DNA from: a virus
Direction: 5' to 3' (one strand)
IMG/VR virus record: IMGVR_UViG_3300040796_000034
Location: 62,851-126,850 of that record
Length of the DNA: 64,000 bases
The notes below the pieces were generated by a model. That model worked only from the letters and a program-made list of their open reading frames with translations. It had not been told where the DNA came from and made no database searches. Shown here in pieces: positions 31,278 to 59,999 of the stretch; positions within the stretch are counted from its first letter, which is position 1; the number at the start of each line of letters is the position of its first letter. The translations under genes and the position numbers were made by a program.

Positions 31278-31666
31278 TATGATTTGATTTTTTACGATTT
31301 TTTCTGATGGAATTGATTCGGTATTTTTGTAAGTTGAGTGAGGTTAGGTAAGGTTTAATGATGGATAGTTTGTTATTAGTGAATATGTTAGCATATTTGG
31401 AGAAAAGATATGTGTGTATGTGAATGTATGTAGATGTGGGAAGAATATGGTAGAAATGGTTATTGGATTTATGCCAACACCCACCCCCACACAATCCCTA
31501 TCCTTTTTCACATAATCCTATCAACATCACACCCAAACCATATCCCACACATTCCATCAAACATTACCAATAACTAACATTTTATCTATTTCACCTACTA
31601 TTAATAAATATCAATATCTACATTTCACATATTATTAAATAAAATATCACATTATGGGCCTTTCCT

Positions 31667-31765
31667 ACGAGCGATGGCCCGGCAAACGAGCGATGACCCG
31701 GCCGACGAGCGATGGCCTGGCGATGGCGTACATTAGGCGATGGCCCGGCAAACGAGCGATGGCGG
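31667..31765 (+). repeat. tandem array of six GCGATG(G/A)C-core repeats (unit ~ACGAGCGATGGCCCGGCAA)
   Basis: Cores at 31671, 31690, 31709, 31720, 31737, 31756. Confidence 0.85.
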
Positions 31766-31789
31766 GGCCTTCAAAATTATTTTTAAAAA

Positions 31790-31832
31790 TGTATCGTAGA
31801 ATACAGAAATAAGAATTGAATAGATTTATGGT
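31790..31832 (+). promoter_or_regulatory. canonical NtcA-activated promoter
   Basis: TGTA-TCGTAGAA-TACA (31790-31805), then TATGGT (31827-31832) exactly 22 nt after TAC: GTA-N8-TAC-N22-TAN3T. Confidence 0.75.
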
Positions 31833-31861
31833 TAAATAGTTCAATTAAGTTAGGTTCAAAA

Positions 31862-32122
31862 ATGAATACAACAGTTAAAGAAGTTATAACGCCGAACGAG
31901 TTAATCTCATTAGCTATGGGACAATTTGAGAAAGATTACCCCAACTCATTAATTGACGTAGTGAGTGTTAATCATAAACTTAGTTGGAATGAACGTCACC
32001 CCCGAGTGGCTGTGTGTTCACTAATTTTAATCGAGTTAACTTGCAAGCGTTTTTTAGTTTACAAGTTTGCTGCAAAATACTCTGAGGCGTATCTATTCGA
32101 GCGCTATTTTGAAATAGACTAA
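31862..32122 (+). CDS. hypothetical protein downstream of the NtcA promoter
   Basis: 86-aa ORF with AGG RBS. Confidence 0.6.
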   Translation: MNTTVKEVITPNELISLAMGQFEKDYPNSLIDVVSVNHKLSWNERHPRVAVCSLILIELTCKRFLVYKFAAKYSEAYLFERYFEID

Positions 32123-32602
32123 ACCCGTCGCCGCTAAACTTTTTTAGGCTCTATTAATTTAGGGCCTTTTTAAGAGCCATCCGGTATAACAATTATTACT
32201 CTTTCCGGTATAACCGCTCTAGTGGATTTTAAGCTAGGATAAGACTGCTTTAGGGTATTCCTACCATTAGAGCATTTAACAGCTATTAACGAGCTGAATA
32301 GTCGCCGCTATTTGATTAATTAGATTATTGCCGGCCCCCCGTTATCTTTATTATTTTCACTCCTATTAATAGAAGATAATCCGGCCCACCTATTCCTACT
32401 ACATTAAAGGCCCACCCTTACCCGCTATGGCCAAGGCCCAACTTATTCCAGTAACAGAATACGGTGGCCCAAAGATGGCCAGAAAATGTCCAAAATGATT
32501 TTTTAATCAACATTTTACCCCTAATTTGATTTTTTAGTCAACAGTGAAACCTATATGCAGCAACGGTTACAAGACTTTTTTAAAAAAACTTTCTAAAAAG
32601 GG

Positions 32603-32631
32603 TTGACAACTAAAGAATTACTAGCTACTAT
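32603..32631 (+). promoter_or_regulatory. strong sigma70-type promoter
   Basis: TTGACA-N17-TACTAT with upstream A/T tracts. Confidence 0.8.
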
Positions 32632-32767
32632 GAAGTTGGTTAAGAGAAAGACAAAAAAAACAAACCGCCGATAACTCTTGCTGAGTGACACAAATCACAA
32701 GGCCAGGGATAAGGTCCAAAGTTTAACTTTCTCTTAATGATGTACCTTAACAATTGAATAAAAAATA

Positions 32768-33418
32768 ATGTCGAACTACAAGTTTAACTGGTCCGCAATA
32801 AGTATGGGTGAGGACGTGAACGACTCTAAGCACTGTGCTTTATACTGGTATTGTAAAGAATACCATCAGGGACAAAGTGACTGGCGCTATGAGGTATTGA
32901 GTAAATCACCTTATACACCCGGGCCGTGTCAGAGTGACATCTTAGACTCAGAAGACTTCGCAGCTATCCAGTATTATCAGCATTTACTGAGGTTATTTGA
33001 ACCCAATATTTGCGATATAGACTTAGTGAGCTATGAAGTCGGGTCAAAAGGGATTATCGACTTTTGGTCCCATACCCATAGCATAACCATTTCTGTTAAT
33101 GGTGACTGGTTTAGTGCTACCGATTTGGCGCGTGACGTGTACGAGCAAGTACAGCGCTGCGATTGGGGCTACCAAGTGGACCTGGCTGATATTTTTTCCT
33201 GTCTCGGCTCTTTTCACTATCCCTTAAGTGTAGAAGTCGATAACGATACCGATGAGGAAGAAACAGAATTATTATGGCTAGGGTTCGACTGGTATAACGA
33301 ACCGGAGGAACCTGTGGATACCTGTAATGGGTGTATCTACTTCACTGGGGAATCAGCCCTACGTTGCGCGGTGAATCCACTGTCAACGGAGCGCTGTATC
33401 GAATATCAAACAGCCTAA
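32768..33418 (+). CDS. hypothetical protein with C-terminal DUF6464-like Cys motif
   Basis: TCNGCIYFTGESALRCAVNP...C. Confidence 0.6.
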   Translation: MSNYKFNWSAISMGEDVNDSKHCALYWYCKEYHQGQSDWRYEVLSKSPYTPGPCQSDILDSEDFAAIQYYQHLLRLFEPNICDIDLVSYEVGSKGIIDFWSHTHSITISVNGDWFSATDLARDVYEQVQRCDWGYQVDLADIFSCLGSFHYPLSVEVDNDTDEEETELLWLGFDWYNEPEEPVDTCNGCIYFTGESALRCAVNPLSTERCIEYQTA

Positions 33419-33544
33419 TAACCTATCAATTATGCCTGGGGGGTTAATCCCCCCAAGCCTTACTATTGTATTCTAAGCTTATAAAGCTATTCATAGAATA
33501 CAATACAAGGCAAAAATTATCAAGGATTATCGAGGTTAGAAAAA

Positions 33545-33817
33545 ATGAAAATTAATGTAGATTGGGTTGAACACATTGGAAACCTAGATACATACACCCG
33601 ATGGTTTCAAAATCTGTATGAAAATATAGATTCTGAAATCGAAGATTATATCTCCCTTAGAAAGGGAGAAATTTTAGGAGATGTTGTAGAAAAACAATTA
33701 AGCTACAGTTATCAACAAAATCTTGAGATATCTTGGTTTGGTGATTACGACATTGGTGTAGAGTTGCACCGCGCATCCGGAGATGAAACTTGGTTCATCA
33801 AGTTTACTATCGATTAG
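33545..33817 (+). CDS. acidic hypothetical protein
   Basis: 90 aa, GAGG RBS. Confidence 0.6.
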   Translation: MKINVDWVEHIGNLDTYTRWFQNLYENIDSEIEDYISLRKGEILGDVVEKQLSYSYQQNLEISWFGDYDIGVELHRASGDETWFIKFTID

Positions 33818-33912
33818 AATCTAGCACTAGGGATATAGTGCGATTATATCCCTGGCTGCTGTATTCTTTAGGATACAGTGTAAAACTTAGAAAATTTTCG
33901 AGGATAGAAAGA

Positions 33913-34602
33913 ATGGACCCTATCGTAGGAATTAACGTAAGCAGCCACCCATACATAACGCAAGCTTTAGAATGCTGCAAGTTTGATATCGCAGCCCCTC
34001 TATGGGCACGATTAGCAACGCTTCGTCGTATGAAATTACATTGTAATGCGTACCGGATTAAAGTGGACATTAACCACATGGTCTGGAAGAAAGGCCAAGG
34101 CCCTTTAAAAACCTACTCCGTAGGGGAGTCTTACCCAGTTAACTTACAGTGCTTTCTGGGAGAACACAAAACTTTTTACATACCTGGGAGTTACTCCCAG
34201 GTAACAGGGAGTCACCGACTAATTAAAGTACCTCTGAGTGAGGTAGATGCTTTTTTGGTTGACAAAAAAAGCATAATCGTCTACCCGAAAATGGACGCGG
34301 CGTTCTTCTACCGTTCCCACGAACAGTATCCCCAGTATTTGGGGACTAATCCATACAAATACAAAGAAATGCCTCAAAACGGTATTTCTTTCTTTTTCAA
34401 ACCTCAATCATCATCTGTTGTAGGTGAGGCAGTCTCTCAGAATAAAGGTACACGGTTAGAGTGCTTCTACCCCCATACAAATATTTTAAAGGGAGTAGAG
34501 ATGGATTTTGGGAAATATTTCCCGGATTACCCGGAGTTATCTGTTGAATGGGCTTTGCAAAAAGAAGTTATTAGCAAAAAACTTCTTAAAGCCTATTCAT
34601 AG
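33913..34602 (+). CDS. hypothetical protein (start moved to ATG 33913)
   Basis: GAGG RBS before ATG 33913; the 5' part of the track ORF overlaps an RNA hairpin. Confidence 0.6.
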   Translation: MDPIVGINVSSHPYITQALECCKFDIAAPLWARLATLRRMKLHCNAYRIKVDINHMVWKKGQGPLKTYSVGESYPVNLQCFLGEHKTFYIPGSYSQVTGSHRLIKVPLSEVDAFLVDKKSIIVYPKMDAAFFYRSHEQYPQYLGTNPYKYKEMPQNGISFFFKPQSSSVVGEAVSQNKGTRLECFYPHTNILKGVEMDFGKYFPDYPELSVEWALQKEVISKKLLKAYS

Positions 34603-34693
34603 AAGCTTTTATTTCACCCCTTGACACAAGCTAGAATCTAGCACTAGGGATATAGCGGCCTTCCCTATATCCCGCGCCGCTAAAGTCTTATTT

Positions 34694-34724
34694 AACCCAC
34701 CCTAACCCGGTGGGTTTTTTTTTT
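34694..34724 (+). terminator. intrinsic terminator
   Basis: ACCCACC-ctaaccc-GGTGGGT plus T-tract; near-identical copy at 37026. Confidence 0.75.
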
Positions 34725-35044
34725 GCTCGAAAAATGCAGCGATCGCCCCGAGTTTTTAGCGCCGCAGTCCCACGGGTTGTCACTTGTCCGGGCCATCACT
34801 TGTAATTGTTTGTCCGGGCCTTCATACGGGTTGTCTTGTCCATAGTGTTTGTCATAGTGTTTGTCATCCTTTCACTAACATTCATTCTCCGGCCCCTAGA
34901 AAGCTCGTAAAGGTGCATTAAGCTTGTCTCTGGTATATTCTACCCTTTATTATTTCACAAACCTTAAAAGCCCGTATATGCAGGGTGATTTGTGTTTTAA
35001 ATGTGAAAGGAGCAAATTGGACACAAGCTAAAAAACTTTTAATT

Positions 35045-35087
35045 TGTGATTCAAATCACAGACAAAGGATTTTTAACTAGCTAAAGT
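35045..35087 (+). promoter_or_regulatory. class II CRP-dependent promoter
   Basis: TGTGA-TTCAAA-TCACA (35045-35060), -10 TAAAGT (35082-35087); site centre at -41.5; no consensus -35. Confidence 0.75.
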
Positions 35088-35117
35088 AGAAACATAGAAA
35101 CAACAAAGAGGATTATC

Positions 35118-35858
35118 ATGGCAATTTTGAAACTAGAGTACGTTAAACGTTCTACTTTTTCTTGGGAACGTGATTTGGTAGAGCTACCAGCAAACACCCC
35201 CCAGGGTATCTACTACTCAAAGGATGAGCTAGGGGACATTCTTTATAATTTCTTAGGTGAGGAGGAATTTACCGATGAAGATGAGGATGGTTTCCCGGCG
35301 ATACCTTACAAGTTAAGCTTTGATGGGGTGAAGGTAAGTGAATCATCTGTAATAATGGCTGTCCGCGATATGTTTCCTGGGACGACGCTAATTGATATTA
35401 CTGAGGACGACGTAGCTTACATCCGTATGGAGTGTTACCCCAACACTTTTAAGGAGTGGGTAAACCTTCAATTTGCTGAGAGCTTTACTCTCGAATATAT
35501 TAAGACGGCACTCCCTGACATATCTGAGTGGGCGCAGTCCAACTGCCCGCGGTCTGCTAAACTTTTTGACATCTATTCAGAAGAAATTCAAATTCTGGCA
35601 CTTGTAGAATCTGCGGACTTTGAGACCCGGTTCGAGGGGTGTCTAACGGGTTTTAAGACGGACCTACTCGATATTGCGTTAACTGAAATTGTGATGATTA
35701 TCGTCAACGAATTAGAAGAAGCCGACGACGATGACTTCAACGAATGGTGTGATAGTGAGGATGAGGACGACGATGAGGACTATAGCGACGGGTATTTCAA
35801 TGATGACCTCGTTGCATTGAAATATGAGGTACTAGACCCAGATAACGATTTATTCTAA
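35118..35858 (+). CDS. highly acidic hypothetical protein
   Basis: 246 aa, GAGG RBS, D/E-rich tail. Confidence 0.65.
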   Translation: MAILKLEYVKRSTFSWERDLVELPANTPQGIYYSKDELGDILYNFLGEEEFTDEDEDGFPAIPYKLSFDGVKVSESSVIMAVRDMFPGTTLIDITEDDVAYIRMECYPNTFKEWVNLQFAESFTLEYIKTALPDISEWAQSNCPRSAKLFDIYSEEIQILALVESADFETRFEGCLTGFKTDLLDIALTEIVMIIVNELEEADDDDFNEWCDSEDEDDDEDYSDGYFNDDLVALKYEVLDPDNDLF

Positions 35859-35917
35859 TACCAGAAACACTCCCGGCCTTCCGGGGGTGTACAATCCAAA
35901 ATTACCAAGGTAAAAAA

Positions 35918-36241
35918 ATGAAATACATACCAGACTCCCTACCTACACCCTCCTTACAAGAGGATATAGACCGGACAGAGAAGGCAATAGCCTTTTATGT
36001 AACCGACTACCTAGAGGCGACACCACATTGTCCATGTACTTTAGGGGAAATTATCCAAGATATAAAAGGGTTAGCTGAATTGCCCGCTAATTTAAGAAAT
36101 AGGGAGGTTAGTTCTTTTAGCTTACGGTTAACAGACAATGATGAAGATACGAATCGTTTATTTACTTTACTGGTGGCGTACTTAAAAGATTTACAAAACT
36201 TAGAAAAAGAGCAAATCAAAGACCAAACCTCACGACTTTAA
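35918..36241 (+). CDS. hypothetical protein
   Basis: 107-aa ORF. Confidence 0.6.
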   Translation: MKYIPDSLPTPSLQEDIDRTEKAIAFYVTDYLEATPHCPCTLGEIIQDIKGLAELPANLRNREVSSFSLRLTDNDEDTNRLFTLLVAYLKDLQNLEKEQIKDQTSRL

Positions 36242-36244
36242 AAA

Positions 36245-36323
36245 ACCCGAAACATCCTCAGCCTTCTGGGGGGTGTACAGCCCAAAAAAATAGCTCTGGG
36301 GCTGCTGATGAAGGTAGGAGCTA
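36245..36323 (+). ncRNA. type II hammerhead ribozyme with loop I/3'-tail pseudoknot
   Basis: ACCC-GAAA-stem III(CATCCTCAG cctt CTGGGGGGTG)-TA|CAGCCC-loop-GGGCTG-CTGATGA-AGGT; loop TAGCTCT pairs with GGAGCTA; predicted cleavage after GUA (36277). Confidence 0.75.
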
Positions 36324-36348
36324 TGCTTAGAAAATTAGGAGATACAAG

Positions 36349-36747
36349 ATGGCTAGTAAGATGCCACAGTTTGATTTGGACCAAGTGAAATCTGTATTAA
36401 CAGAGGAAGAGTACAAGCTCTTCCAACTCACCCTTAACAAAGACCGACTCCGGGCCACCAAGCCCACAGAGAAAAAATGTGGGGACAAATTGGGGGAAGC
36501 GTATTACGTCTGGCGTATGACCGCATTTTATTTAGCGGGGTTTCATCCCCACAACAGTATGCCAGTCTGCGCAGATTTGCTGATTGATTCTTTCTATCTG
36601 TACGAGTACGAGGAAGACCCAGAGAAAGTAAAAATCAAACGAGCGCAGTATGATGCTCGTATTGCCGAACTAGATGAGATAGTTGATAAAGTGGTAACAA
36701 GTCAAAAAGGCATCATCAGGTGGGGGCGAGCATTAGGTTATTTCTAG
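36349..36747 (+). CDS. phage hypothetical protein
   Basis: RLRATKP..AYYVWRMTAF..H.SMPVCAD; AGGAG RBS. Confidence 0.6.
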   Translation: MASKMPQFDLDQVKSVLTEEEYKLFQLTLNKDRLRATKPTEKKCGDKLGEAYYVWRMTAFYLAGFHPHNSMPVCADLLIDSFYLYEYEEDPEKVKIKRAQYDARIAELDEIVDKVVTSQKGIIRWGRALGYF

Positions 36748-37025
36748 CCCCTAAAATCTAGCAAGATGGGGAGTAGTGCGATTCCTCCCCTCTCTGCTGT
36801 ATTCTGTTTAACTTTGTAAGGATTTGTATGAGAACTTTCTCAGAAACGTATTGGACAGTAAACGACTTGTATCTGGACAATCTCTCGATTGCCTCGAAGC
36901 GGTGGAAAACAACCGACACCGTTATCGGCGGTGTGAAATACCGCTAGAACAGGTTTGCAAAACCCAGGAATGGGGCGAAGAGCTTATTAAAAAACTAACA
37001 ACCCTTTCATAATTTCAATTTCCAG

Positions 37026-37050
37026 CCCACCCTAACCCGGTGGGTTTTCT
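37026..37050 (+). terminator. intrinsic terminator
   Basis: CCCACC-ctaaccc-GGTGGG plus TTTTCT. Confidence 0.7.
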
Positions 37051-37092
37051 CTTGTCTCAATTTCCCGGATCGCAAACCCTTTTATTAGCGGC

Positions 37093-37149
37093 GGCCATCG
37101 CCAGTCTGGCCATCGCCAGTCTGGCCATCGCTACAGTCTGGTCATCGCT
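37093..37149 (-). repeat. four GG(C/T)CATCGC repeats (reverse complement of the 31.7-kb core), period 15-17 nt
   Basis: Copies at 37093, 37108, 37123, 37140. Confidence 0.85.
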
Positions 37150-37210
37150 TGTCTAAGCCCCGCCACCGCTTGTAATTGTTTGTCTGCTGGACCTTTATAC
37201 GGATTGTCTC

Positions 37211-37275
37211 AGTGATTAGCATCATATAACCTAGTGATTTGTATCACCCCTTAACGATTGTCAATTGAATATTAT
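37211..37275 (+). promoter_or_regulatory. CRP-type promoter with two degenerate sites
   Basis: AGTGA-N6-TCATA (37211-37226), AGTGA-N6-TCACC (37233-37248, centre -41.5), -10 TATTAT (37270-37275). Confidence 0.6.
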
Positions 37276-37308
37276 AGTAATTGTCAAGAGAATTAAAGGA
37301 GTTTTAAA

Positions 37309-37638
37309 TTGAATGAATTAGAAATTGCCAGGCAAGCCGCTATAGGCGCATCCTGGTATCAGAATGAACGAGACCGGAAAAGTTACACTAAGAATTGTAG
37401 TCGAGCCTACTTGTCTGCATTCTACAAATCTAGGGGCTACAAGTACACCCCTAGTAAAGAAGTTGAGTACAACTTTATAGGCAATTTGTTTTTAGTTGTA
37501 CGGGAGCCAATAGTATTATATCGCGATAGGGGTCATGTACTCCTTTGGAGCGATAAAATCGTCTATCTTACTTCTAAAATAGGAGAAAGGATAGATGAGG
37601 GTGACTACCTCTTAAAGTATTACTGGGAGGGGTTCTAG
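37309..37638 (+). CDS. hypothetical protein (TTG start)
   Basis: AAGGAG RBS. Confidence 0.6.
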   Translation: MNELEIARQAAIGASWYQNERDRKSYTKNCSRAYLSAFYKSRGYKYTPSKEVEYNFIGNLFLVVREPIVLYRDRGHVLLWSDKIVYLTSKIGERIDEGDYLLKYYWEGF

Positions 37639-37686
37639 TAGTAAATAGTTGAATAAAAGTTAGATAACGTAAAGGAGTTAGATACA

Positions 37687-39354
37687 GTGGGAAAATTTGT
37701 AGAGGACAATGAGTCCACAGACTTATTTCAGTACAGCGTGGACGTAGTGAAACACGCCACTGGAGAATACAGAAGAGAGTTAGAAATATGGGAGGATACC
37801 TGTGAGGGGTATCGATGCGGGGGGTATAATGCCTACCGCGACTACAACCCCTGGCGGACGGTGATAGGGTTGGAGTTGGAGATGGAAGGGACATCCTTCT
37901 GTATCGAAAACTACTCATCACTGTTAAATTACGGAATCTTTTCAGAGGATTCCACGGTAGATGCTGAATTTAAAGGGCTACCGTTTCGGCTCTCAGATTG
38001 GCTACGAATAGCGGCTGAGAATCGTTTTAATTTTGACAAATTTTTGCGGTATAACAGTGAGGACAATGGCGCGGGTCTTCATATCCACATATCACAGAGG
38101 TGTCTGTCGGAGGAGGCAGCCGAGTATATTAGAGGGTTTCTCTGTAATTGCGGAGAAAGTGTTTTGGAGACAGTTGCAGGGAGAGAACTCCCTAACAACT
38201 ATGTAACGCCATACACTACCCTTGATAGTGGGAAATATGGATATACAACCCGACATAAAAGTGGAGTGACCTGGGAGATTCGTATTTTCCAATCGCCGAA
38301 TGATTGGCAAGGATTAATACGATGTCTTGTATGGGTAGCGATGCTCGTACAAAAAGCAGAGAGTACCAGTGATAGACCGGGTAAGTATGGTCCGCTATCA
38401 TACAATGGTATTCCACAAGAAACTTGGAAAGAAGTTTTCCAGGAGATGTTAGATAAGTTTGAGGGTATATATCCACAGATTGTTAGTAATCTTGAAAAAT
38501 TACCCTTAAGGCAGGAGGATATCTGCCTAGAGTATCTATATGATGAAGACGATGAGGAGGGGTACGGGGAACCATTATATTACGACCCCGTAACAGATGA
38601 CGAGTTTGAAAGTTACGAAACTTATGTAGAAGTCATCTATGGGAGGATAATTGACGACCCCTTTAGCTATATGGAGGATGGTTACAATTCAATCAAAGAC
38701 TTGTATGAGGTTGGCGATTACAATCTTTTCTACGAATCATGCTTTCCGAGTCTTTGGGTTAGCGATATCTATGAGGTGATTCGCTACGACGATGACCGTA
38801 TCATAGAGATGCTCCATGAGGACTTATGGGAGTATATCCATAAAATCCCTTGGAAAAGACTTCTAGTACCGACGGCGGATAACCTGTTTCGGGTAAATCG
38901 CAATAACCCGTTAGGACGTTTAACTCACGCTATACAAGAGTATGGCTTTAATGAGGATGCCATTGTTGAGGAGTTTGTAGAGAATTTCTTAAGTCTGGAT
39001 TTCCCTGAGTGGTATAGAGATAAATGTAATGAATACCATCGATACAACTACTACTCCAATGACTATAGCTTACAGAAACACCCTACAGAGGAGGTGTTAT
39101 ATGAATACCTTCGAGAGGAGATTCGTAAGTTAGTCCGAGAGACAATACAAGCTAACTGGGTAACAAGAGCTAACTGGGTGTGGATAAATGAGTATGATAG
39201 TAACACCCTTATACGCCGATACTCAAATCCTGTACTAGAAGTACAACTATTCTCGGAGTATTGCGATTTGTACCCCATGTTGCCGTTAGGATTTGAAATG
39301 GAGTATAAAGTCGCTAATGCAGTAGGTATCCCCTCCTGCTGGATAGTGAAATAA
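37687..39354 (+). CDS. putative amidoligase (COOH-NH2 ligase type 2) with acidic C-terminal extension
   Basis: IGLELEME, EDSTV..EF, GAGLHIHIS, WEIRIFQS. Confidence 0.7.
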   Translation: MGKFVEDNESTDLFQYSVDVVKHATGEYRRELEIWEDTCEGYRCGGYNAYRDYNPWRTVIGLELEMEGTSFCIENYSSLLNYGIFSEDSTVDAEFKGLPFRLSDWLRIAAENRFNFDKFLRYNSEDNGAGLHIHISQRCLSEEAAEYIRGFLCNCGESVLETVAGRELPNNYVTPYTTLDSGKYGYTTRHKSGVTWEIRIFQSPNDWQGLIRCLVWVAMLVQKAESTSDRPGKYGPLSYNGIPQETWKEVFQEMLDKFEGIYPQIVSNLEKLPLRQEDICLEYLYDEDDEEGYGEPLYYDPVTDDEFESYETYVEVIYGRIIDDPFSYMEDGYNSIKDLYEVGDYNLFYESCFPSLWVSDIYEVIRYDDDRIIEMLHEDLWEYIHKIPWKRLLVPTADNLFRVNRNNPLGRLTHAIQEYGFNEDAIVEEFVENFLSLDFPEWYRDKCNEYHRYNYYSNDYSLQKHPTEEVLYEYLREEIRKLVRETIQANWVTRANWVWINEYDSNTLIRRYSNPVLEVQLFSEYCDLYPMLPLGFEMEYKVANAVGIPSCWIVK

Positions 39355-39405
39355 GGAAAGAGAATTAGAAGAGCTTCCATAAAGGAGCGGCTATTAAATT
39401 TGTAC

Positions 39406-39431
39406 AACCCGGCGATAAGTCGGGTTTTTTT
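39406..39431 (+). terminator. intrinsic terminator
   Basis: AACCCGGC-gataa-GTCGGGTT plus T-tract. Confidence 0.7.
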
Positions 39432-39683
39432 ATGCTAAGGATCGCAAGAAAAAATAAGCGCCGCTAGCACTTGTCAATCTATACCCGCCAACTGTCTTTG
39501 GCCCATAGAATTACTTGGCCCTTTACCTTCACTGTCCCCAAATCTGATAGCGCGGTTCTGGCTCATAGTGTTTGTCCATCATAAGCGCAATAGAGGAAAT
39601 AGGGTATCATAAGCTGCTAAATAAGACTGTATTGTATGACACTTTTTCTAATATTTATTTCACAACTTTTTAATAAGAAGAAA

Positions 39684-39712
39684 AGGATACCATACTTCGG
39701 TTAATTTGTCAA
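39684..39712 (-). promoter_or_regulatory. sigma70 promoter on the minus strand facing non-coding DNA
   Basis: TTGACA-N17-TATCCT with extended TGn. Confidence 0.55.
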
Positions 39713-39811
39713 GCATTTATTAAAATTAATTTTTTTTAAAAAAATTTTTATAAGCTGAAACTCTTGTACAGTAAAGGTTACAAGCATTGGACATCGGCTA
39801 TTTCACTAAAT

Positions 39812-39856
39812 GAGGGGTCAGACCCCCTATGCAAATTCCTTAAAAGATGTCATTAT
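39812..39856 (+). promoter_or_regulatory. HetR-type palindrome upstream of an extended -10
   Basis: GAGGGGTC-A-GACCCC (perfect GGGGTC-N-GACCCC); TGtCATTAT at 39848-39856. Confidence 0.55.
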
Positions 39857-39969
39857 AGAAATGTGGAAGGAAAAAGAGCTTGAAACCTAACGGTGGTAAG
39901 ACTTTCACCTAACACGAGTTACTACCAAGGGCCAGAAAAAAAAACTTAAAAACTTTTTTTGAAAAACCC

Positions 39970-39998
39970 TTGACAAACTAGCTAAACAAAGCTAAAGT
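39970..39998 (+). promoter_or_regulatory. strong sigma70-type promoter
   Basis: TTGACA-N17-TAAAGT with upstream A/T tracts. Confidence 0.75.
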
Positions 39999-40043
39999 AG
40001 TAATAACGAGTTAAATAGTTAACTCCTTACAATTTAGAATTTA

Positions 40044-40228
40044 ACCGGGACGACCGCTAGAGGCTCTCGTTTGTTAAATGTCAATTTTTTCTTTACTGGA
40101 ATGAGGTTTAGCTAAATCTCTACCGAGTAATCTAAATGATTGTAATCATCATTTACTGATTGCCGAATAGAGCTTTAGTCATACAACAGACAAAGTTCGT
40201 TGATAGGGTTCAAATCCCTATCCTGGTA
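40044..40228 (+). ncRNA. 185-nt tRNA-like structured RNA
   Basis: Acceptor-like stem ACCGGGA/TCCTGGT+A, T-arm TAGGG-TTCAAAT-CCCTA, several internal hairpins. Confidence 0.6.
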
Positions 40229-40274
40229 TTACCTTTTAGGTAAAATGTAAAATCCATAATGGAGTTTAAACCCA

Positions 40275-40667
40275 ATGAAAATATTCAACGGAACCCAACA
40301 TCAGATAACCTTTTATAAGGTACAGGATACAACTCCTGTCGAGGGAGGTCGTAAGCTCATACTAAACGAAAAAGGAGCCGAGCCTTACTATGTAATCGCA
40401 CCGGGTACAAATCTCAACTGTATAAAGTGCAACGCTGATGCACCTAATCTCGAAAGTCCTGTCCCCCTAGTGGGGGCGGTGCAATTCAAAGATGCAGATA
40501 TCCTTCCCGAGGGGTATGACCTGTACATAGTCTCAAATCTGTACCGCGCCGCGTGTGTAGAGTTAGGACGCAATACCGACAAACTCGCTACGGTATCAGG
40601 AACCGTGTATAAAGGGGTTCCTGGAGAATTTAAACCTTGCGGAGTTATCGAGCTTGCTGTAGGTTAA
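40275..40667 (+). CDS. hypothetical protein
   Basis: MKIFNGTQHQI...LYIVSNLY; GGAG RBS. Confidence 0.65.
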   Translation: MKIFNGTQHQITFYKVQDTTPVEGGRKLILNEKGAEPYYVIAPGTNLNCIKCNADAPNLESPVPLVGAVQFKDADILPEGYDLYIVSNLYRAACVELGRNTDKLATVSGTVYKGVPGEFKPCGVIELAVG

Positions 40668-41005
40668 TAATCCTGTCCTGTTTGGCAGAGTTCGTTAAAC
40701 TGCCATCTTTCAATCACCAAGGTTTACCCGGTCCCTTACCTAAATACCGGGAGTAAATCTATTAACAAGATATCATGTTTAAGTGTCCAATGATTTATCA
40801 AAGACTTTACCGAGATGGGTGTACACCCCCTATAATTGTACATCCGTTAAATACAATGCCTGATAGTAGTGAAATCATCTGAGATGAAAAAAAAACTACT
40901 CCTAATCTATCTGCTCTATTACTTACTGCTGGATTGTATTCTGTAAAGTCCCAATTCAGCAAGAGTTAATAGTCAATCAAGAAGAGTTAATCGGAGACTA
41001 CAACG

Positions 41006-41236
41006 ATGGGTTTATATCAATTAGGTTTGCAAGATTCGATGTTAGAGAAACCTCGTACACGAGAGTCGTTAAAAATAGTAATAGGCTCGGAAATTCCAAT
41101 AACATCTTACTATCAGGAATATTTACGGGGGTTCCATTTCCAAAAGCCCGTAATATGTCCCTTTTGTAAAGCCGTACAAGGCATTTCAGGGGTTGACAAG
41201 ATACCCTTTGAATGTCCAGAGTGTGAAGCTACCTAA
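41006..41236 (+). CDS. small protein with CxxC...CxxC zinc ribbon
   Basis: CPFC...CPEC; GGAG RBS. Confidence 0.55.
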   Translation: MGLYQLGLQDSMLEKPRTRESLKIVIGSEIPITSYYQEYLRGFHFQKPVICPFCKAVQGISGVDKIPFECPECEAT

Positions 41237-41386
41237 AACTTAGTCGAACAGTCCTGGATATGACTTTAAACTGTCTAAGTAAACTAATTAACAGAGGTTT
41301 TCGACTGACATGAAAAGAAGAAATGAACTACTAGCACAAGCTAACTATTTAGGTTCTACGGATAATACCCTATAAAACTGCTTATC

Positions 41387-41458
41387 GGCCCTGATACCGA
41401 ATGGTCAGGTGAAAGACTGCAAATCTTTTTTAAGAGAGTTCGATTCTCTCCAGGGCCT
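41387..41458 (+). tRNA. trnC: tRNA-Cys(GCA)
   Basis: GGCCCTG/CAGGGCC acceptor, AAAGA-CTGCAAA-TCTTT anticodon arm, GAGAG-TTCGATT-CTCTC T-arm, U discriminator; no encoded CCA. Confidence 0.9.
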
Positions 41459-41478
41459 TGTCCACAATAGAGGTGACT

Positions 41479-41808
41479 ATGTTAGATATTGATAAACGAT
41501 TTAATGCCTTCGAGAAGGCATTTCAGAAGAAGTCAACAATTTACCTGAATACGGAGATTGCTAATCTGCTAAAAAACTATCCTAACTGGGAGTTTGGCGG
41601 CAGTTACGAACCCTCTTCAGAAGGGGTGGCAAAGTTCTGGATTCTATTGAACGACTGGACTTTTCTAGAACCATTAGGGGACACTTCTATCTCCTACAGC
41701 AGTGGGCTAGAAATAACTGTAGAGTTGTTGTCTCAGCAACAGGATTACCGATTAACCCCTAGCTGGTCTCAGCGTTTTGACGAAGAATCTCCAGGGAACG
41801 CAAATTAA
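41479..41808 (+). CDS. hypothetical protein (start moved to ATG 41479)
   Basis: GAGGTG RBS; the track start overlaps the tRNA. Confidence 0.6.
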   Translation: MLDIDKRFNAFEKAFQKKSTIYLNTEIANLLKNYPNWEFGGSYEPSSEGVAKFWILLNDWTFLEPLGDTSISYSSGLEITVELLSQQQDYRLTPSWSQRFDEESPGNAN

Positions 41809-48623: not shown

Positions 48624-49061
48624 GTGGAGATTAGAATGATAAAGTACCAGAATCGAGTGAAACAAACATTTCAAGAAATTGAAGAATTACTTTTTCTTGA
48701 AAAAGATTTAACGAAATTTAAGAGGTTACAACTTATCTACCTATTAAAAAGTGGAGAAGTAGAAAACCCTAGTCAAGCTGTTCGTTTTTTAGGAGTTCAC
48801 AAAACAACTCTCTGCCGTTGGTGGGAAAAATACGAACAGGGTGGTTTAGACAGACTCTTAAACCGTTCAGTTAAGAATGTGAAAGGGCCAAGTAATTACG
48901 TCATCCCGATTCATATTATTTCTAAAATCGAGACAAAGAAAGGCTTTTTTAAATCTTATCGAGAGATTCAAGACTGGTTACGAGAAGAATATCAACTAGA
49001 TGTCTCATACACGACTGTTCATAAGCAGTTTTCTAAAAAGCAGTTTTCTAAAACACAATAG
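48624..49061 (+). CDS. IS630-family transposase-like HTH protein without a catalytic domain
   Basis: RLQLIYLLKSG...LGVHKTTLCRWWEKYEQGGL..LL; FKSYREIQDWL..EYQLDVSYTTVH. Confidence 0.7.
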   Translation: MEIRMIKYQNRVKQTFQEIEELLFLEKDLTKFKRLQLIYLLKSGEVENPSQAVRFLGVHKTTLCRWWEKYEQGGLDRLLNRSVKNVKGPSNYVIPIHIISKIETKKGFFKSYREIQDWLREEYQLDVSYTTVHKQFSKKQFSKTQ

Positions 49062-49168: not shown

Positions 49169-52100
49169 ATGAAGTACGATTTCATGTCTTGGTTAGATAC
49201 ACCCGTATCAGATGATTGGGAAACTATTGCCGCTGGTAAATCTGAATATTTAGCACTACATCTTAGTGAAATTATTCAAGAAATTGAAAAAGATAGTAAA
49301 GTAGAAGCTTTATCAGTAGAGGAGAAAGCCGCAGGGTTAGAACTACTTGATAAGTTAGTACGTTTCTTGACCGCCGCTAATGCTGACTTAGTTTTAGCGA
49401 TTAACCGTGAAGGTAACTGTTATCAAGCATCTGCTAATAAAGAGCAACCTTAAACTTAATTAGTAAAGAAGTCGCTTGTCAGAATCCACTACTTGTATAA
49501 ATAGTGGATTCTGAAGTAGTTTAATCTTTTAACTTTTCACATACTTGGAGAAATTCAATGGAAAATCGGACATTCGATATAAGGGTTATTACAAGCCCTA
49601 CAATGAACGATAAAGTTGTTACAGATATTTTATCGTCAATGGAGCAAAAAGGGTATGAGTGCATCAAAAAAGGCTCTCAAAAGAGTAGGAAAGATAATAA
49701 CGTTCTAACCTACCTAACTTTTCTCAATCCAAAAGATGAGAGTGAGTTGACTCAAGCGTATTTTGATGCAAATACTGAAGAGTTCTAGTGTACAAAGCAT
49801 CTGTAGTAATTTCAACAAACAAAGGACACTATACAGTTTTATTAGAGAGTGCGGCTTCTAATGAGTTACATAATGACTTAATTAAAGAAACGACTCTTTT
49901 TACAAGTTTCTTAGTAGAGGTATCAGGAAATACCTTGTATCAGGGGTTTTACAAATCGTCTAAAGAAAAAGTTTGGGAAAAATTAGAAAAAATTCTCCTT
50001 AAACATTTCTTAGAAAAAGAGTTTGTAATATGTTACTTAGAAGATAACTAGCTAGTTAACTGTTTTCCATAGCCCTTATTCCGAGGCTTATAATATCGGA
50101 ATAAATCTAATTTAGAGGAATAAAAAATGACTTGGTTTTTCTTTGCAGTTTGTTTTGTCGTAGGGTTTGCAATGGATTGGTATGGTTACTATTACAATTA
50201 GTTTAGGACTATGGATTATTTTGAAGTTCTTGAAGCTGCGTTAGATTTGCAGCCACAATTGATTTGTAAGATATCCACACCACCAGCTAATACAGTTGTA
50301 TGGTATGGCGATACAATAGAAGGTGAGTATGTACTCAAACCTTGGGTTGCATACGACTTTTCTGTAAATAAATACATTATAGGCTACCAAGCAGTATAAT
50401 GTATTTAAGTAAACATCAACAGGACATAAACATGAAAACAACTCTTTTTCTTTTAGCCTCTACCATAGCTTTACTCTTTTTCACGGTACTTCCAGGGTAT
50501 GCAGAAGGTGAAGACCCTCTTACTGGGGAAGGTTCTATTGACGACCATACCGGAGATGTCATCGTCAAACCTCCTGTGAAAAAATAACAATAGTAGTTTG
50601 CAGGTTAACTGTATCTCCTAGATATTTTGTAAAGAGTGTTACCTCATTTTACATTTGTAAATTTTTAGTTGATAGAGGAAAATGGACTATCTTGCGACGT
50701 TAGAAGCTTGTCAAAAAGCTATAGACAGGGAAGGCTCAGACTACTTTAAGAAACAGTCTAAGAAGCTAGTCTCTGTTCATTACAATAAAGACACTGTAGA
50801 GGGGTGTAGTGTAGCTGCCACCTTTCATTCTTTAAACTGTATGAAAACCTTAACGACTGAGTATTTGTACTCAGCAAATCCTGGTTTAGCGCTTTTTAAT
50901 GAAATAGGAGTCTTAAAAGGTATTTCCACTACTGAGATACCTCGGAATTTAATGACTCCTCAAATACAGGCAGAGACTCTGGTAAGGTTTATCCAACTGA
51001 GTTTTACACCTGCAAGCGAGTTACAGGTTGACCCGACAATGTGTCGCGACAAAATCCTCATCGAGAAAACACTTGAGGATGAGTGGGAGCGTTACGGAGA
51101 TTCCTTTGAGTTCTATATCAAAAAACTCGGAGTCGACCCCCGACTACTGAAATCATGTCAAGAAAAGCTATTAAGACTAAAGTATATCTAATCTAGTCTT
51201 GTTAAGCTATTTATCAGGGTTGCATCTACTTAATTGTAGGTGCTTCTCTATGTAATCGACAAAAGAGTTAGATATGAAGAAAGAAAGATATTTAAAAGTC
51301 ATTCCTGAAGTGACTATAATCTGGTCAAAGATGTTACCCCCATACATTCATCAACGGGCTATCTACACCCCTCCTAAAGGTTTAGTAACTCAGGTTTTGA
51401 ATGAATACCAAGAAAACGTTAATGAGGCTTACCAAGCCGCCATTGTTGTAGGCTATTCTGAAGATGACTACATTCGGTGGTACGAAAGCTTTAACTACGA
51501 CTGGATGTCGTATGAAAAAGTGAAAAAGAAATATCTACATAGTCCTTGTACGTCATTTAGGGATATTGGAGATATTATGTTCCCCAAATGTCAGCTATGT
51601 GGATACTACAGACCTGACAGGTGTACAATTTGTGATGACTTTAAAGGGTCGTTATTTAGCAGATAACATTATTCACAGGGTTTAGGTGACAAAAGCTTAA
51701 ACCCTTTTTAACTAAATGAGTAGAACCTATCGCAGTCCTCAGTGTCTTAAAAGTGGTTACAGAAAAGCTCATGTACAATCAACTCGTGTATTAGAATACT
51801 ATGCTGTATATGAGTTAAAAGAGAATAGTTTTAACCCACCTAATCGATTAGTTGCACGAGCTAATCCTAAAAATACAGGGAATAAAAATCACCCGTTACC
51901 TAGTACCTACGCTGAATTACCTATATCAGCTTGGTGGGAGTACGGTAAGATAGTTGAAAAATTCTACAACGATTAACCATTAATTATGAATATCATAGAA
52001 TTTCGTTCAGGGATGAAAACACACTTCAATATCACTAACGATGTTAACTCTTATCTTGTCAAAGAGTTATTACCTTTTGGAGTAGTGGCTCTTGATGTAG

Positions 52101-52855
52101 TTAAGTTCGATGAGGATTTTCTTATTCCTAAATTTGGTGATTACACTGAAGAGAAAGGTATGAGCATGAAGGATATAATCACAGAAAAATACGGTAAAGC
52201 TGCTCGGGACTTTGTAGAGAACGCTATTTAGTTTAGGAGATAAAACCATGAATGATATTGAGTACAAACAATTGTTAATCGACATCCTCTCAATAAGCGG
52301 GTTTCACTGTAACATCATAGGTGTACAAGAACTTATACCAGGGTTTGTACAGATAGTGAAAAACTGTAACTTCCCTGTACAAGACCCTTTGTTACTAGAC
52401 CCGCAAACAAAAGATGCCTTAGACCATGATTCCTTGGTTATTTTAGTGGTCGAGAAACTACCAACACCTTACCGATTTGTGAACGGGGAAAGTGTTATGT
52501 CAATCATTTGTACAAATTAGATTTAGGAAATACAATGATACAACTCGAAACAGACCAACTAACACTTCTTTCAATACAAGAAAACCTCTACCTTATTGAG
52601 TTTTTCTCTTGTACAAACAAACCTTACGAAATAGGTGTAACTGTATATTTTATCCAGAAAGATTCTACTCTATATCTATATCTTTCAAATCTGGATAAAA
52701 AAGTAATTACACACGAAAGCTTACCTAAAAAATATCGTGACATGATTGAGAAATTACCTTTTGAGGATTTCTACCTCAATATGACGTTCATAGTCCAGTG
52801 GGCTATGGATGAAAGCAATTCTTTTACTAAATTAGGTATTTTCCCAGTAAACTAA
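49169..52855 (+). other. run of small hypothetical ORFs (49169, 49558, 49788, 50127, 50211, 50399, 50682, 51274, 51716, 51986, 52248, 52508)
   Basis: Co-oriented ORFs, many with GGAG/GAGG RBS and hairpins between; 50127-50201 is an untracked 24-aa hydrophobic ORF. Confidence 0.55.
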
Positions 52856-52930
52856 TTTACCGATAGGCAGGGTTTTTTAACCCTGCCTTCTTTCTCACTT
52901 TTAAAAAATATACAAACAAAAGGAGGTATT

Positions 52931-53452
52931 TTGGTTTCACTAATAGCTCACCAATACATTAATCAAGAAAATGAATTAAGATATCTACCTCGTAGTTTAA
53001 GAATCACCCGGCTGGACATTGAGTCAATGCTGTATCACGAAATTCGTTTCTTACAAGCGGTTCTTAAGACAGATGACGTTGAGTCAATAGTTGACTTCTA
53101 CTTGCTTAAGATAGAAGACGGTACGTTAGATGTGATAAAACTCTTTAATAAGGCATTAAGAAGCCTTAATCAACGGTGTGACTTTACCGTTACAGAAGAC
53201 TACTACCGTGAGTTTATCCATACCTTTGTAGAAGATAGGCAGTTTAATTTAATCTACTATAACTGGGTTCAATCAAACTATGAAGAGTTTAAGAAACCAT
53301 CTTTAGACCACATAATACCCCTAGTTAACGGAGGTACGAATGAAATAAGTAATTTACAGTGGTTAACGCTTGCTGAAAATCAAATGAAAGGATATTTCTC
53401 ACCTCAAGATTGGAATTTCATTAAAAGTCGGATATCTGATTACCTCGTTTAG
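52931..53452 (+). CDS. HNH endonuclease domain protein
   Basis: KPSLDHIIPLVNGGTNEISNLQWLTLAENQMKG. Confidence 0.8.
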   Translation: MVSLIAHQYINQENELRYLPRSLRITRLDIESMLYHEIRFLQAVLKTDDVESIVDFYLLKIEDGTLDVIKLFNKALRSLNQRCDFTVTEDYYREFIHTFVEDRQFNLIYYNWVQSNYEEFKKPSLDHIIPLVNGGTNEISNLQWLTLAENQMKGYFSPQDWNFIKSRISDYLV

Positions 53453-53467
53453 GAGAGATTTACTACA

Positions 53468-53641
53468 ATGCCTACTAAAATAATGTCATGTCAATGTACA
53501 CATAAATACCAAGACAAGCTCTATGGCAATAATAAACGGGTGTACAACAAAACTGTAAAAGGAACGACACCTGACAGTCAAGGATATCGTTGTACAGTAT
53601 GTAACAATTTAACTAAAAAAAATAAGAAGAAGGAAGATTAA
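53468..53641 (+). CDS. 57-aa putative zinc-binding protein (not in track)
   Basis: MPTKIMSCQCTHKYQDKLYG..RVYN..YRCTVC; AGGAG RBS. Confidence 0.6.
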   Translation: MPTKIMSCQCTHKYQDKLYGNNKRVYNKTVKGTTPDSQGYRCTVCNNLTKKNKKKED

Positions 53642-53706
53642 GCAATTAGGAGTATATAGAAATATGTACTCCTTTAATCTTTAAAAAATAGAGAGAAAGT
53701 AGAATT

Positions 53707-54081
53707 GTGAAACTATTAATTGCAGGAAGTAGAAACATTTGTCTAAAAGTTAGTAAGTTTGAAGAGTTGTGTGACAGATATTTACAAGAAACTTCTTATG
53801 AGGATTTAACAATTGTTTCAGGAGGAGCTAGGGGTGTAGATACTTGGGCAAAGAACTATGCAACATCAAGGGGTGTTAAGTTTATTGAGATACTTGCTAA
53901 ATGGAAAGATAGTACAGGTAATTTTATTAAGTCTGCTGGAATGCGCCGCAATGCTGAGATGCTAGATATTGTGGACAATTGTTTATTCTTTTGGGACGGA
54001 GAAAGTCCTGGAACTAGACAATGTATTCAACTAGCAGAGAAACAGAAGAAAATAGTTAAAATATTTTTAATAAAACAATGA
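53707..54081 (+). CDS. SLOG-superfamily protein (YspA/DUF2493-like)
   Basis: KLLIAGSR, IVSGGARGVDT, AGMRRNAEM, FWDGESPGT. Confidence 0.8.
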   Translation: MKLLIAGSRNICLKVSKFEELCDRYLQETSYEDLTIVSGGARGVDTWAKNYATSRGVKFIEILAKWKDSTGNFIKSAGMRRNAEMLDIVDNCLFFWDGESPGTRQCIQLAEKQKKIVKIFLIKQ

Positions 54082-54419
54082 AAATAGAAATATCTACACC
54101 AAGATTAGTCGAAGAAATTGATAAGTTTTTAGACATTTACAGTAATCAAACTAAAAATCTTTGGTCTATATATGTCGCCAATCACCTAATATTGAAAGAG
54201 TTAGTTGTAGGAGATATTCTCCAAACAGATTATAAAATTGTAACCTTTACAACTAATGTTATAATTTTTCACTGTAAGGTTATTCACAACATTCATGGAG
54301 ACACCCAGTTTAACACTATTACAAAACAACTTAATCAAATACAACCTCTTTTTGATTATTTGAAAAAGATGAATAGTGAACAAGAAAACATCAACTACTA
54401 TCAAGAAAACAAAATTTAA
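54078..54419 (+). CDS. hypothetical protein
   Basis: 113-aa ORF, ATGA coupling region. Confidence 0.5.
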   Translation: MKIEISTPRLVEEIDKFLDIYSNQTKNLWSIYVANHLILKELVVGDILQTDYKIVTFTTNVIIFHCKVIHNIHGDTQFNTITKQLNQIQPLFDYLKKMNSEQENINYYQENKI

Positions 54420-54428
54420 GAGGATATA

Positions 54429-54605
54429 ATGGCATTTACTTGGATATCTATATTAGGAGTTTTATATGCTCTATGGGTATATTTTTTATTCATTGGTATG
54501 TGTATAGGGCTAATCAACAAAGATTTCGAGTTAACGGTGCTTTGTACAACTACCCTAGTAATTTCTTCGACATTTTTCTACATTTTATGTATGGTCTTTA
54601 ACTAA
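54429..54605 (+). CDS. 58-aa two-TM membrane protein (not in track)
   Basis: MAFTWISILGVLYALWVYFLFIGMCIGLINKDFELTVLCTTTLVISSTFFYILCMVFN; GAGG RBS. Confidence 0.5.
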   Translation: MAFTWISILGVLYALWVYFLFIGMCIGLINKDFELTVLCTTTLVISSTFFYILCMVFN

Positions 54606-54775
54606 CGTTATTATAAGCTATCAGTAACAAATAGGTATTAGGGGATTTATTTAAGTAATAAATACTTCTATACCTATTCTGTTTCAATCTTACACAGATT
54701 TTTGACTATGTAACTACTGTCGAAAACGTTAAGTGTTACTCTGTCTCTAGTAAATGATGTCTATAAGAGGTCTCA

Positions 54776-59932: not shown

Positions 59933-59999
59933 GCTATAATGAATAAAATGAATAAACTGATACAAGGACTGATAAACGTTTACTTTATTTTTTTTTAAA

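Follow-up and report, generated by a model that had tools for sequence, protein, structure and literature searches.

Candidate activator-type promoters beside sigma-70 consensus promoters in an orphan-gene island of an uncultured long-tailed phage

The subject of this analysis is a 64,000-nucleotide (nt) stretch of DNA, hereafter the window, which forms the final 64 kilobases (kb) of the 126,850-nt virus record IMGVR_UViG_3300040796_000034, and in particular a series of orphan genes between 31862 and 40667 that are separated by long non-coding blocks. We found promoters of two layouts in these blocks—some with both sigma-70 consensus boxes, others with a 16-base-pair (bp) dyad and no −35 box. 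We give an even chance to a reading with two promoter classes, in which the dyad class would be activated by a host dimer of the CRP family at −41.5. On this reading, the stretch is an island of orphan ('takeover') genes in an uncultured long-tailed phage, a distant relative of PA-SR01 and Pam2, two phages of Pseudanabaena, and paralogous cassettes split it into five transcription units. Two of these units (starts near 32638 and 40005) would be served by consensus sigma-70 promoters with A-tracts that need no helper, and three (starts near 31839, 35094 and 37282) by promoters with a good −10, no −35 and a CRP/FNR-family dyad centred at −41.5. A dimeric host activator of the CRP family would dock on these dyads and recruit RNA polymerase (class II activation), so that the gene sets downstream of the three dyad promoters would respond to a physiological signal in the host. 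What the sequence shows is the motifs, their common register, their enrichment and the paralogy of the blocks; we infer that a protein binds the dyads, that the host supplies this protein, and which signal it senses.

What is documented of phages using host global regulators consists mostly of NtcA boxes predicted in T4-like marine cyanophages. The present siphovirus lineage, unrelated to these and uncultured, appears to carry a small, clean set of activator-type promoters beside constitutive ones, which offers a concrete and testable case of condition-dependent early gene expression.

Register and enrichment of the dyad promoters

The promoters on which the argument turns are the following:

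31790-31832, plus strand: dyad promoter 1, TGTATCGTAGAATACA (TGTA-N8-TACA, 31790-31805), 21 nt, TATGGT; CAGAAA at the −35 position
35045-35087, plus strand: dyad promoter 2, TGTGATTCAAATCACA (35045-35060), 21 nt, TAAAGT; CAGACA at the −35 position
37233-37275, plus strand: dyad promoter 3, AGTGATTTGTATCACC (37233-37248), 21 nt, TATTAT; CCCCTT at the −35 position
32603-32631, plus strand: sigma-70 consensus promoter, TTGACA-17-TACTAT, with an upstream A-tract and the spacer word ACTAGCTA
39970-39998, plus strand: sigma-70 consensus promoter, TTGACA-17-TAAAGT, A-tract present; a 270-nt leader and a 130-amino-acid (aa) gene come next
32512-32541, minus strand: consensus-like promoter, TTGACT-18-TAAAAT, back to back with the 32603 promoter
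39684-39712, minus strand: consensus promoter, TTGACA-17-TATCCT with TG, directed towards a terminator-like hairpin at 39472-39456

When aligned, the three dyad promoters fall into one register, namely a 16-mer, then exactly 21 nt, then TAN3T. Their strict cores are GTA..TAC at 31791 and GTGA..TCAC at 35046 and 37234, and the CRP consensus is matched at 10/10 positions at 35045 and at 8/10 at 37233; a weaker half-site adjoins dyad promoter 3 at 37211-37226. A sequence-only reading of this DNA had placed CRP-type dyads at −41.5 at 35045 and 37233 and had described the activator-type promoters as devoid of a consensus −35, and both statements agree with our counts and with the boxes listed above. 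In dyad promoter 2, the A-tract and the spacer word ACTAGCTA seen in the consensus promoters are kept, as though a −35 had been exchanged for a dyad.

Strict dyads, defined as GTR-N8-YAC, occur 123 times in the record (115 coding and 8 non-coding, the latter providing 16 orientations). A TAN3T box lies exactly 22 nt after the dyad in 4 of these 16 non-coding orientations against 0.54 expected, and in none of 66 further non-coding orientations of relaxed GT-N10-AC dyads; among the 115 coding dyads, the same geometry was found three times. Three of the non-coding matches (31791, 35046 and 37234) point at the next gene, and the fourth (39629, minus strand, TACCCT) is probably due to chance. Moreover, GTGA-N6-TCAC is present in three copies in the record (32685, 35046 and 37234), all within the blocks, where about 1.2 are expected from composition; in the window, the three copies compare with 0.62 expected, a number reached in 1 of 100 shuffles. 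The narrower word GTGAYWCAAATCAC fits all three copies, and the inner word that they have in common, CAAATCAC, exceeds the generic CRP consensus in specificity. TGTA-N8-TACA occurs 7 times in the window (1.83 expected), mostly in coding DNA and tied to TGTACA, a word over-represented in the record (146 occurrences against 43 expected).

We also examined the consensus class. The pattern TTGAC[AT]-N16-18-TAN3T occurs 16 times in the record, and the only four fully non-coding sites all lie in the blocks 32123-32767 and 39355-40274, forming two divergent pairs (+32603/−32541 and +39970/−39712). The plus-strand TTGACA promoters at 32603 and 39970 had been recognised before, and their minus-strand twins at 32541 and 39712 had been missed. 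Because of these divergent pairs, we consider the two blocks to be paralogous divergent-promoter blocks; they also have in common a segment of the form TGAAAC..GGTTACAAG. As a class, sigma-70-like sites show no excess (39 against 40.7 expected).

Host, candidate regulators and rival explanations

The sequencing runs that contain the record's DNA are labelled microbial mat metagenome. The record encodes a terminase and a capsid protein (the terminase/capsid module lies within the window), DNA polymerase A, a DnaB-type helicase, RNA ligases, Thg1, three DNA methylases and, according to the family lists, MazG, thymidylate synthase and a macro-domain protein, together with a 3153-aa tape measure protein in the first half of the record (50788-60249, minus strand). 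Because of the terminase, the capsid, the tape measure protein and the other genes encoded, the phage is a large siphovirus. The length of the tape measure protein implies a very long tail; a virion RNA polymerase was also considered for this open reading frame (ORF) and rejected. The portal families Portal_Mu and Phage_portal were both matched in the first half of the record, apart from the window's terminase/capsid module, a combination that may reflect the assembly or a second module.

The capsid protein matches 8 of 50,697 phage records, with PA-SR01 and Pam2 by far the best (27% identity over 95% of the protein, expectation value (E) 1e-28). In addition, 13 of 163 rough-called ORFs match the 47-kb parts of PA-SR01 and Pam2 that were fetched, and the 130-aa gene at 40275-40667 has homologues in both phages with 53-54% identity. 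GATC occurs only 4 times in the record against 388 expected, and it is absent from the fetched parts of both relatives, where 168 and 174 copies are expected; those parts are also devoid of GGCC and CCGG, two words that the present record retains. This kinship of capsid and ORFs with Pseudanabaena phages, together with the common lack of GATC, leads us to favour a cyanobacterial host, and we put the likelihood that it is a filamentous cyanobacterium at roughly two in three. Among the 64 six-base palindromes, 28 are absent from the record and another 14 occur only 1-3 times, compared with an absence of only 1-2% of non-palindromic hexamers of like composition; Shine-Dalgarno-like words precede 50 of the 163 ORFs (with rough starts). 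Both the palindrome avoidance and the low Shine-Dalgarno share are compatible with a cyanobacterial host, without being specific to one. The case for a CRP-family activator stands without host identity; the names NtcA, cAMP-CRP (cAMP, cyclic AMP) and HetR hang on it.

If the host is indeed cyanobacterial, the GTA dyad would fit NtcA and the GTGA dyads would fit cAMP-CRP. The excerpted text of PMC2633013 describes CRP-activated promoters of cyanobacteria as TGTGAN6TCACA with TAN3T about 22 bp downstream, and the class II promoters of SyCRP1 (Synechocystis) and AnCrpA (Anabaena) resemble dyad promoters 2 and 3 in the dyad, the spacing and the missing −35. The present sites differ in that they lie on a phage, precede orphan genes, carry the inner word CAAATCAC and have a third copy in a leader hairpin. 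Likewise, the promoter at 31790-31832 fits the NtcA-type consensus (GTA-N8-TAC, 20-23 nt, TAN3T, no −35) and its spacing. Sites of the GTA-N8-TAC type were predicted in all 16 T4-like cyanophages studied, with 1-16 per genome, according to an excerpt of PMC3037559; here, by contrast, we found a single such site, and the siphovirus that carries it has no relation to the T4-like phages. Predicted NtcA boxes are already in print for cyanophages, and a literature search on cyanophages with cAMP receptor protein or HetR brought up, among the titles listed, none on phage promoters using these factors. A model in which separate early operons, beside constitutive ones, are gated by NtcA, sensing 2-oxoglutarate, through the GTA dyad and by cAMP-CRP through the GTGA dyads seems rather improbable to us, and two different host sensors for the GTA and GTG dyads are not supported. 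Were it true, orphan-gene sets would be deployed by the nitrogen and cAMP state of a mat-forming cyanobacterium, and one more layer of control, so far undescribed, would come from the iteron arrays and from the three GATCGC sites (both treated below) that a genome otherwise free of GATC has kept.

PA-SR01 and Pam2 are distant relatives, and likenesses found there are leads rather than tests. In the fetched parts, GTGA-N6-TCAC has one copy in PA-SR01 and none in Pam2. The PA-SR01 copy precedes an early gene in the same register as dyad promoter 2, with 21 nt ending in AACTAGC and then TAAAGG. In Pam2, a perfect TGTA-N8-TACA-N22-TATAAT (136415-136458, minus strand) heads the early region and is followed by an unannotated ORF; a backwards-read control of this pattern gave no match. 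Two P-II-like proteins are annotated in the Pam2 record (Pam2_158 and Pam2_177). We further observed a repeated element ahead of early genes in PA-SR01 (132430 and 136058) and Pam2 (132071 and 133684), consisting of CTTTCCYTACGRTA, a variable hairpin and TATCGTGWGGAGTGAT(GCTAATCAC); its G-U pairs hint at a structured RNA.

Several observations weigh against activation of the dyads by a host protein. GTA-N8-TAC occurs 65 times in the record, and its 3 non-coding copies against 4.3 expected amount to no enrichment. The proposed NtcA site at 31790 fits in its layout, the N22 register; the dyad by itself gains weight only because its register equals that of both GTGA dyads. Outside the promoter geometry lies the third copy of GTGA-N6-TCAC (32685-32698), at the tip of a leader hairpin, and given this copy the word may act as an RNA or repressor site. 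In PA-SR01, TAAAGG makes a poor −10, only 8 nt from the start codon; in both relatives, a GTGAT-N4-ATCAC-like word follows the conserved hairpin, and the Pam2 copy pairs only through G-U. Scans of viral and metagenome contigs with proteins of the stretch, alignments, the terminase and the methylase yielded no confirmed locus and no relative's copy of this stretch. The record may be incomplete (CheckV 41%), and a phage-encoded reader of the dyads could lie outside it; within it, a 145-aa winged-helix DNA-binding protein is encoded at 48624-49061. As to the host, the C5 methylase of the phage is closest to metagenome-assembled genomes of Clostridia (~48%), with 19 genome-contig loci, mostly in Clostridia and none cyanobacterial. 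Methylase genes do travel between lineages, and CRP-type dyads are also recognised by other CRP/FNR-family proteins. Finally, crp is missing from 17 of the 29 cyanobacterial genomes surveyed in PMC2633013, as its excerpted text has it.

These points bear on two other explanations. The dyads could instead serve as operators for a regulator that the phage itself encodes. This might be an early or middle protein; it would switch early transcription or shut it down, and would bind GTGAYWCAAATCAC at two promoters as well as in the leader of the 32603 unit, where it would form a roadblock at +47. One repressor would account for all three GTGA copies, including 32685 downstream of a consensus promoter; their common CAAATCAC goes beyond what a generic CRP site calls for, and the phage encodes many orphan proteins besides the winged-helix one. 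However, dyad promoters 2 and 3, being without a −35, look activator-dependent rather than repressed, and the GTA dyad at 31790 keeps the register with a different half-site. HTH_Crp_2, Sigma70_r2 and HTH_3 have no match in the record, and the winged-helix protein is of the transposase/terminase helix-turn-helix type. We judge a phage regulator of this kind unlikely.

Alternatively, the motifs could be without a role at the DNA level, with GTGA..TCAC words acting as small RNA hairpins or arising by chance, a register that is coincidental, and blocks that serve as recombination or replication spacers (iterons) or are decayed cassette copies. The copy at 32685 does form the tip of a significant leader hairpin, and the copies in PA-SR01 and Pam2 behave like RNA hairpins—a reading favoured there because the Pam2 copy keeps its pairing by G-U. 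The numbers are also small (three promoters), the motifs were chosen after the sequence had been read, and the blocks carry repeats that are not linked to promoters (iterons, TTGTC clusters, GATCGC). Nevertheless, the exact N22 geometry exceeds expectation in non-coding DNA and vanishes among relaxed dyads, GTGA-N6-TCAC is non-coding in 3/3 cases, and shuffled sequences fold as well as the RNAs of the two promoter copies do (z −1.07 and −0.05). This explanation, too, strikes us as unlikely.

The sequence-only reading had gone further, proposing a switchboard in which NtcA, cAMP-CRP, HetR and plain sigma-70 would each gate a different operon, the phage thereby sampling nitrogen status, carbon/cAMP status and cell type. 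Its HetR component rests on one element:

39812-39828, no strand: GGGGTC-A-GACCCC palindrome (GAGGGGTCAGACCCCC), 14/17 identical to the HetR site of hetP

The hetP site is GAGGGGTCTAACCCCTC, with a minimal need for GGG-N5-CCC (PMC4192349, excerpted text). The core GGGTCAGACCC at 39815 has this GGG-N5-CCC form, with an A two bases ahead of GGG as in hetP; in contrast to hetP, the element is a single copy with a five-C arm and has lost the outer inverted-repeat positions. In shuffled sequence, a 14/17 match is expected 0.05 times per window against the one found, yet this null is too kind, because unrelated GC-rich, terminator-type hairpins at 33438 and 44287 reach 13/17. The bare GGG-N5-CCC core is not enriched (2 against 2.49 expected), the palindrome has no stable RNA fold (z +0.67), and the fetched parts of PA-SR01 and Pam2 hold no comparable site (best 12/17). 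A 185-nt insert that separates the two divergent consensus promoters contains the palindrome, and the TTGACA box serving the same downstream gene follows 142 nt later; because of this strong −35, control by HetR would be largely redundant. No fixed promoter geometry is known for HetR sites. The palindrome is most likely not part of the promoter scheme, and wiring to HetR thus comes down to one borderline match.

In favour of the full four-regulator model, every motif it named is present at its place, the HetR-like element has the core and flanking A just described, and the GTA and GTGA half-sites differ as NtcA and CRP sites do. Under simple controls, however, the four-motif reading shrinks, with two of its four 'wires' at chance level (NtcA alone) or borderline (HetR), and what we see instead is two promoter classes. 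An associated lysis/dormancy decision finds no counterpart in the Pfam and NCBIfam lists of 143 ORFs, which contain no integrase, repressor or other lysogeny genes. We consider the four-regulator model very unlikely.

Island layout and paralogous spacer cassettes

Genes and blocks alternate across the island as follows:

31495-31861: non-coding block 1, 367 nt
31862-32122, plus strand: 86-aa ORF downstream of dyad promoter 1
32123-32767: non-coding block 2, 645 nt
32768-34602, plus strand: operon of three orphan genes (216, 90 and 229 aa) with hairpins at 33438-33455 and 33816-33867 between genes
34603-35117: non-coding block 3, 515 nt
35118-36747, plus strand: operon of 246, 107 and 132 aa downstream of dyad promoter 2
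37013-37308: non-coding block 4, 296 nt
37309-39354, plus strand: operon of 109 and 555 aa downstream of dyad promoter 3
39355-40274: non-coding block 5, 920 nt
40275-40667, plus strand: 130-aa gene after the 270-nt leader of the 39970 promoter

The length of the blocks, emphasised before, is real: by a rough gene call over the 126,850 nt, intergenic gaps in the record have a median of 49 nt and only 14 reach at least 250 nt, and the 920-, 645- and 515-nt blocks rank first, second and fourth. A plausible 62-aa ORF at 36824-37012 (TTG start, AAGGA upstream) trims block 4 to 296 nt. All 10 ORFs between 31862 and 40667 are on the plus strand; none has a Pfam family, and a PHROG match is absent in nine, the tenth being marginal (E 0.0095). 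The region from 31.5 to 44.3 kb has 40.6% G+C, compared with 28.5% at 22.9-31.5 kb and 33.4% at 44.3-64 kb, and the fourteen rare six-base palindromes (1-3 copies each) have 8 of their 19 occurrences there. Its G+C and rare-palindrome content suggests younger or foreign DNA.

The blocks are paralogous cassettes, a kinship that the sequence-only reading had missed, with a common order, in which a terminator is followed by GATCGC, by GC-rich iterons and TTGTC words, and by an AT-rich promoter. The elements concerned are:

31667-31770, minus strand: iteron array, six GCGATG(G/A)(C/G)(C/G) units with a 19-nt period, ending 20 nt before the first dyad
34635-34716, plus strand: hairpin (a copy of those at 33816 and 36755), then terminator CCCACCCTAACCCGGTGGG with T10
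34739-34865, plus strand: spacer cassette with GCGATCGC, AGCGCCGC, one iteron and seven TTGTC words within 150 nt
37024-37215, plus strand: second cassette, with a terminator copy, GATCGC at 37068, iterons at 37093-37154 and the segment TTGTAATTGTTTGTC, homologous to 34792-34836
39406-39576, plus strand: third cassette, a diverged copy, with a terminator, GATCGC at 39440, AGCGCCGCTAGC, TGTC-type words and CATAGTGTTTGTC

Canonical terminators open three of the five blocks (34694-34716, 37024-37046 and 39406-39426), fewer than the 'most' claimed earlier; those at 34696 (34696-34718) and 37026 share 23 identical nt, and half of a further copy, in decay, is found at 32410. Three of the record's four GATC words are GATCGC (34741, 37068 and 39440), each 14-25 nt past one of these three terminators, and one of them lies in the record's only GCGATCGC, a HIP1-like word. 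A word of the AGCGCCGC type follows GATCGC, and five of the six CGCCGCTA in the record fall in the blocks. Blocks 34603-35117 and 37013-37308 align over ~130 nt. All nine GRYCATCRC iterons of the record are found in three blocks (31671-31737, 34791 and 37093-37140), just upstream of the dyad promoters, with the array at 31671-31756 inverted relative to that at 37093-37154; conceivable roles for the iterons are those of an origin, of a site for partition or packaging, or of an upstream regulator array. At least five TTGTC words within 150 nt occur only at 34777-34861 and 37149-37281 in the record. Matches to the words AGAATACA and CTTTCCTACGA were rejected, as they are within chance given the number of words screened.

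A precedent in print is provided by the PeSL cassettes of T4-type phages, in which, according to the excerpted text of PMC2839356, sigma-70-like promoters of high strength, along with terminator stem-loops, recur between non-essential orphan genes of a plastic region, with repeats that look like substrates for modular shuffling. The likeness lies in the repeated terminators and paralogous spacers that flank orphan genes here. In contrast to PeSL, the present cassettes are 300-900 nt long rather than small and contain TTGTC words, GATCGC and iterons; in three of them, a dyad promoter takes the place of a sigma-70 consensus, and the phage is a siphovirus and not T4-type. No joints were seen in the DNA contigs (weak evidence; no search was aimed at mini-circles or recombination). 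Such cassettes of 0.3-0.9 kb, with iterons and conserved GATCGC, may matter for the shuffling and insulation of orphan genes in phage genomes.

Transcript contigs, hairpins and orphan proteins

RNA contigs were available from two metatranscriptome runs of the same sample; they cannot show transcription starts, and RNA libraries can hold DNA. Two contigs begin at 32654 and 32669, just past the start predicted for the 32603 promoter, and further ones cover 31976-32133, 32873-33422, 33614-33779, 34035-34217, 36329-36711 and 40368-40580. Expression of the covered parts is probable; no contig covers 35118-36328 or 37309-39354, from which silence should not be concluded.

The leader of the 32603 unit contains the hairpin mentioned above:

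32637-32740, plus strand: long 5'-leader hairpin whose tip is the third GTGA-N6-TCAC (32685-32698)

This hairpin folds at −27.9 kcal/mol (z −2.94), a value equalled by 3 of 200 shuffles, and its GTGA copy, at about +47 from the 32603 promoter, had not been noticed before. Intercistronic hairpins at 33816-33867, 34635-34690 and 36755-36805 have z-scores of −5.1, −3.86 and −2.7. In these three, the outer stem (AGAAU.UAGCA / UGCUGUAUUCU) is conserved and the inner stem differs while still pairing, which makes them candidates for RNA processing or stabilising sites.

Screening with Rfam (at the gathering threshold in the window, and at E<=5 over 31400-41500) gave only tRNA-Cys above threshold, and ARAGORN likewise found only tRNA-Cys. 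The leader of the 39970 promoter (40044-40228) closes with GGGTTCAAATCCC, which resembles a T-arm, and an acceptor-like 3' strand; no tRNA or tmRNA was detected there by ARAGORN or by Rfam (E<=5), and there was likewise no hammerhead match at 36245-36323. Transcription from the minus-strand 39712 promoter to the hairpin at 39472-39456 would yield an RNA of ~230 nt; folds of the putative minus-strand RNAs are no better than those of shuffles (z +1.0 for 39712 and −1.1 for 32541).

Megablast of the stretch against the 50,697 phage records gave no match, nor did tblastn of the 555-, 906-, 637- and 950-aa proteins. At the protein level, the 246-aa protein has four relatives besides itself, and the 555-aa protein (37687-39354) has only two among 5.8 billion proteins (67% and 60% identity). 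In the ESM Atlas, the 555-aa protein falls only among clusters of viral hypothetical proteins, one of which carries Amidoligase_2 on 14% of its members—a lead only.

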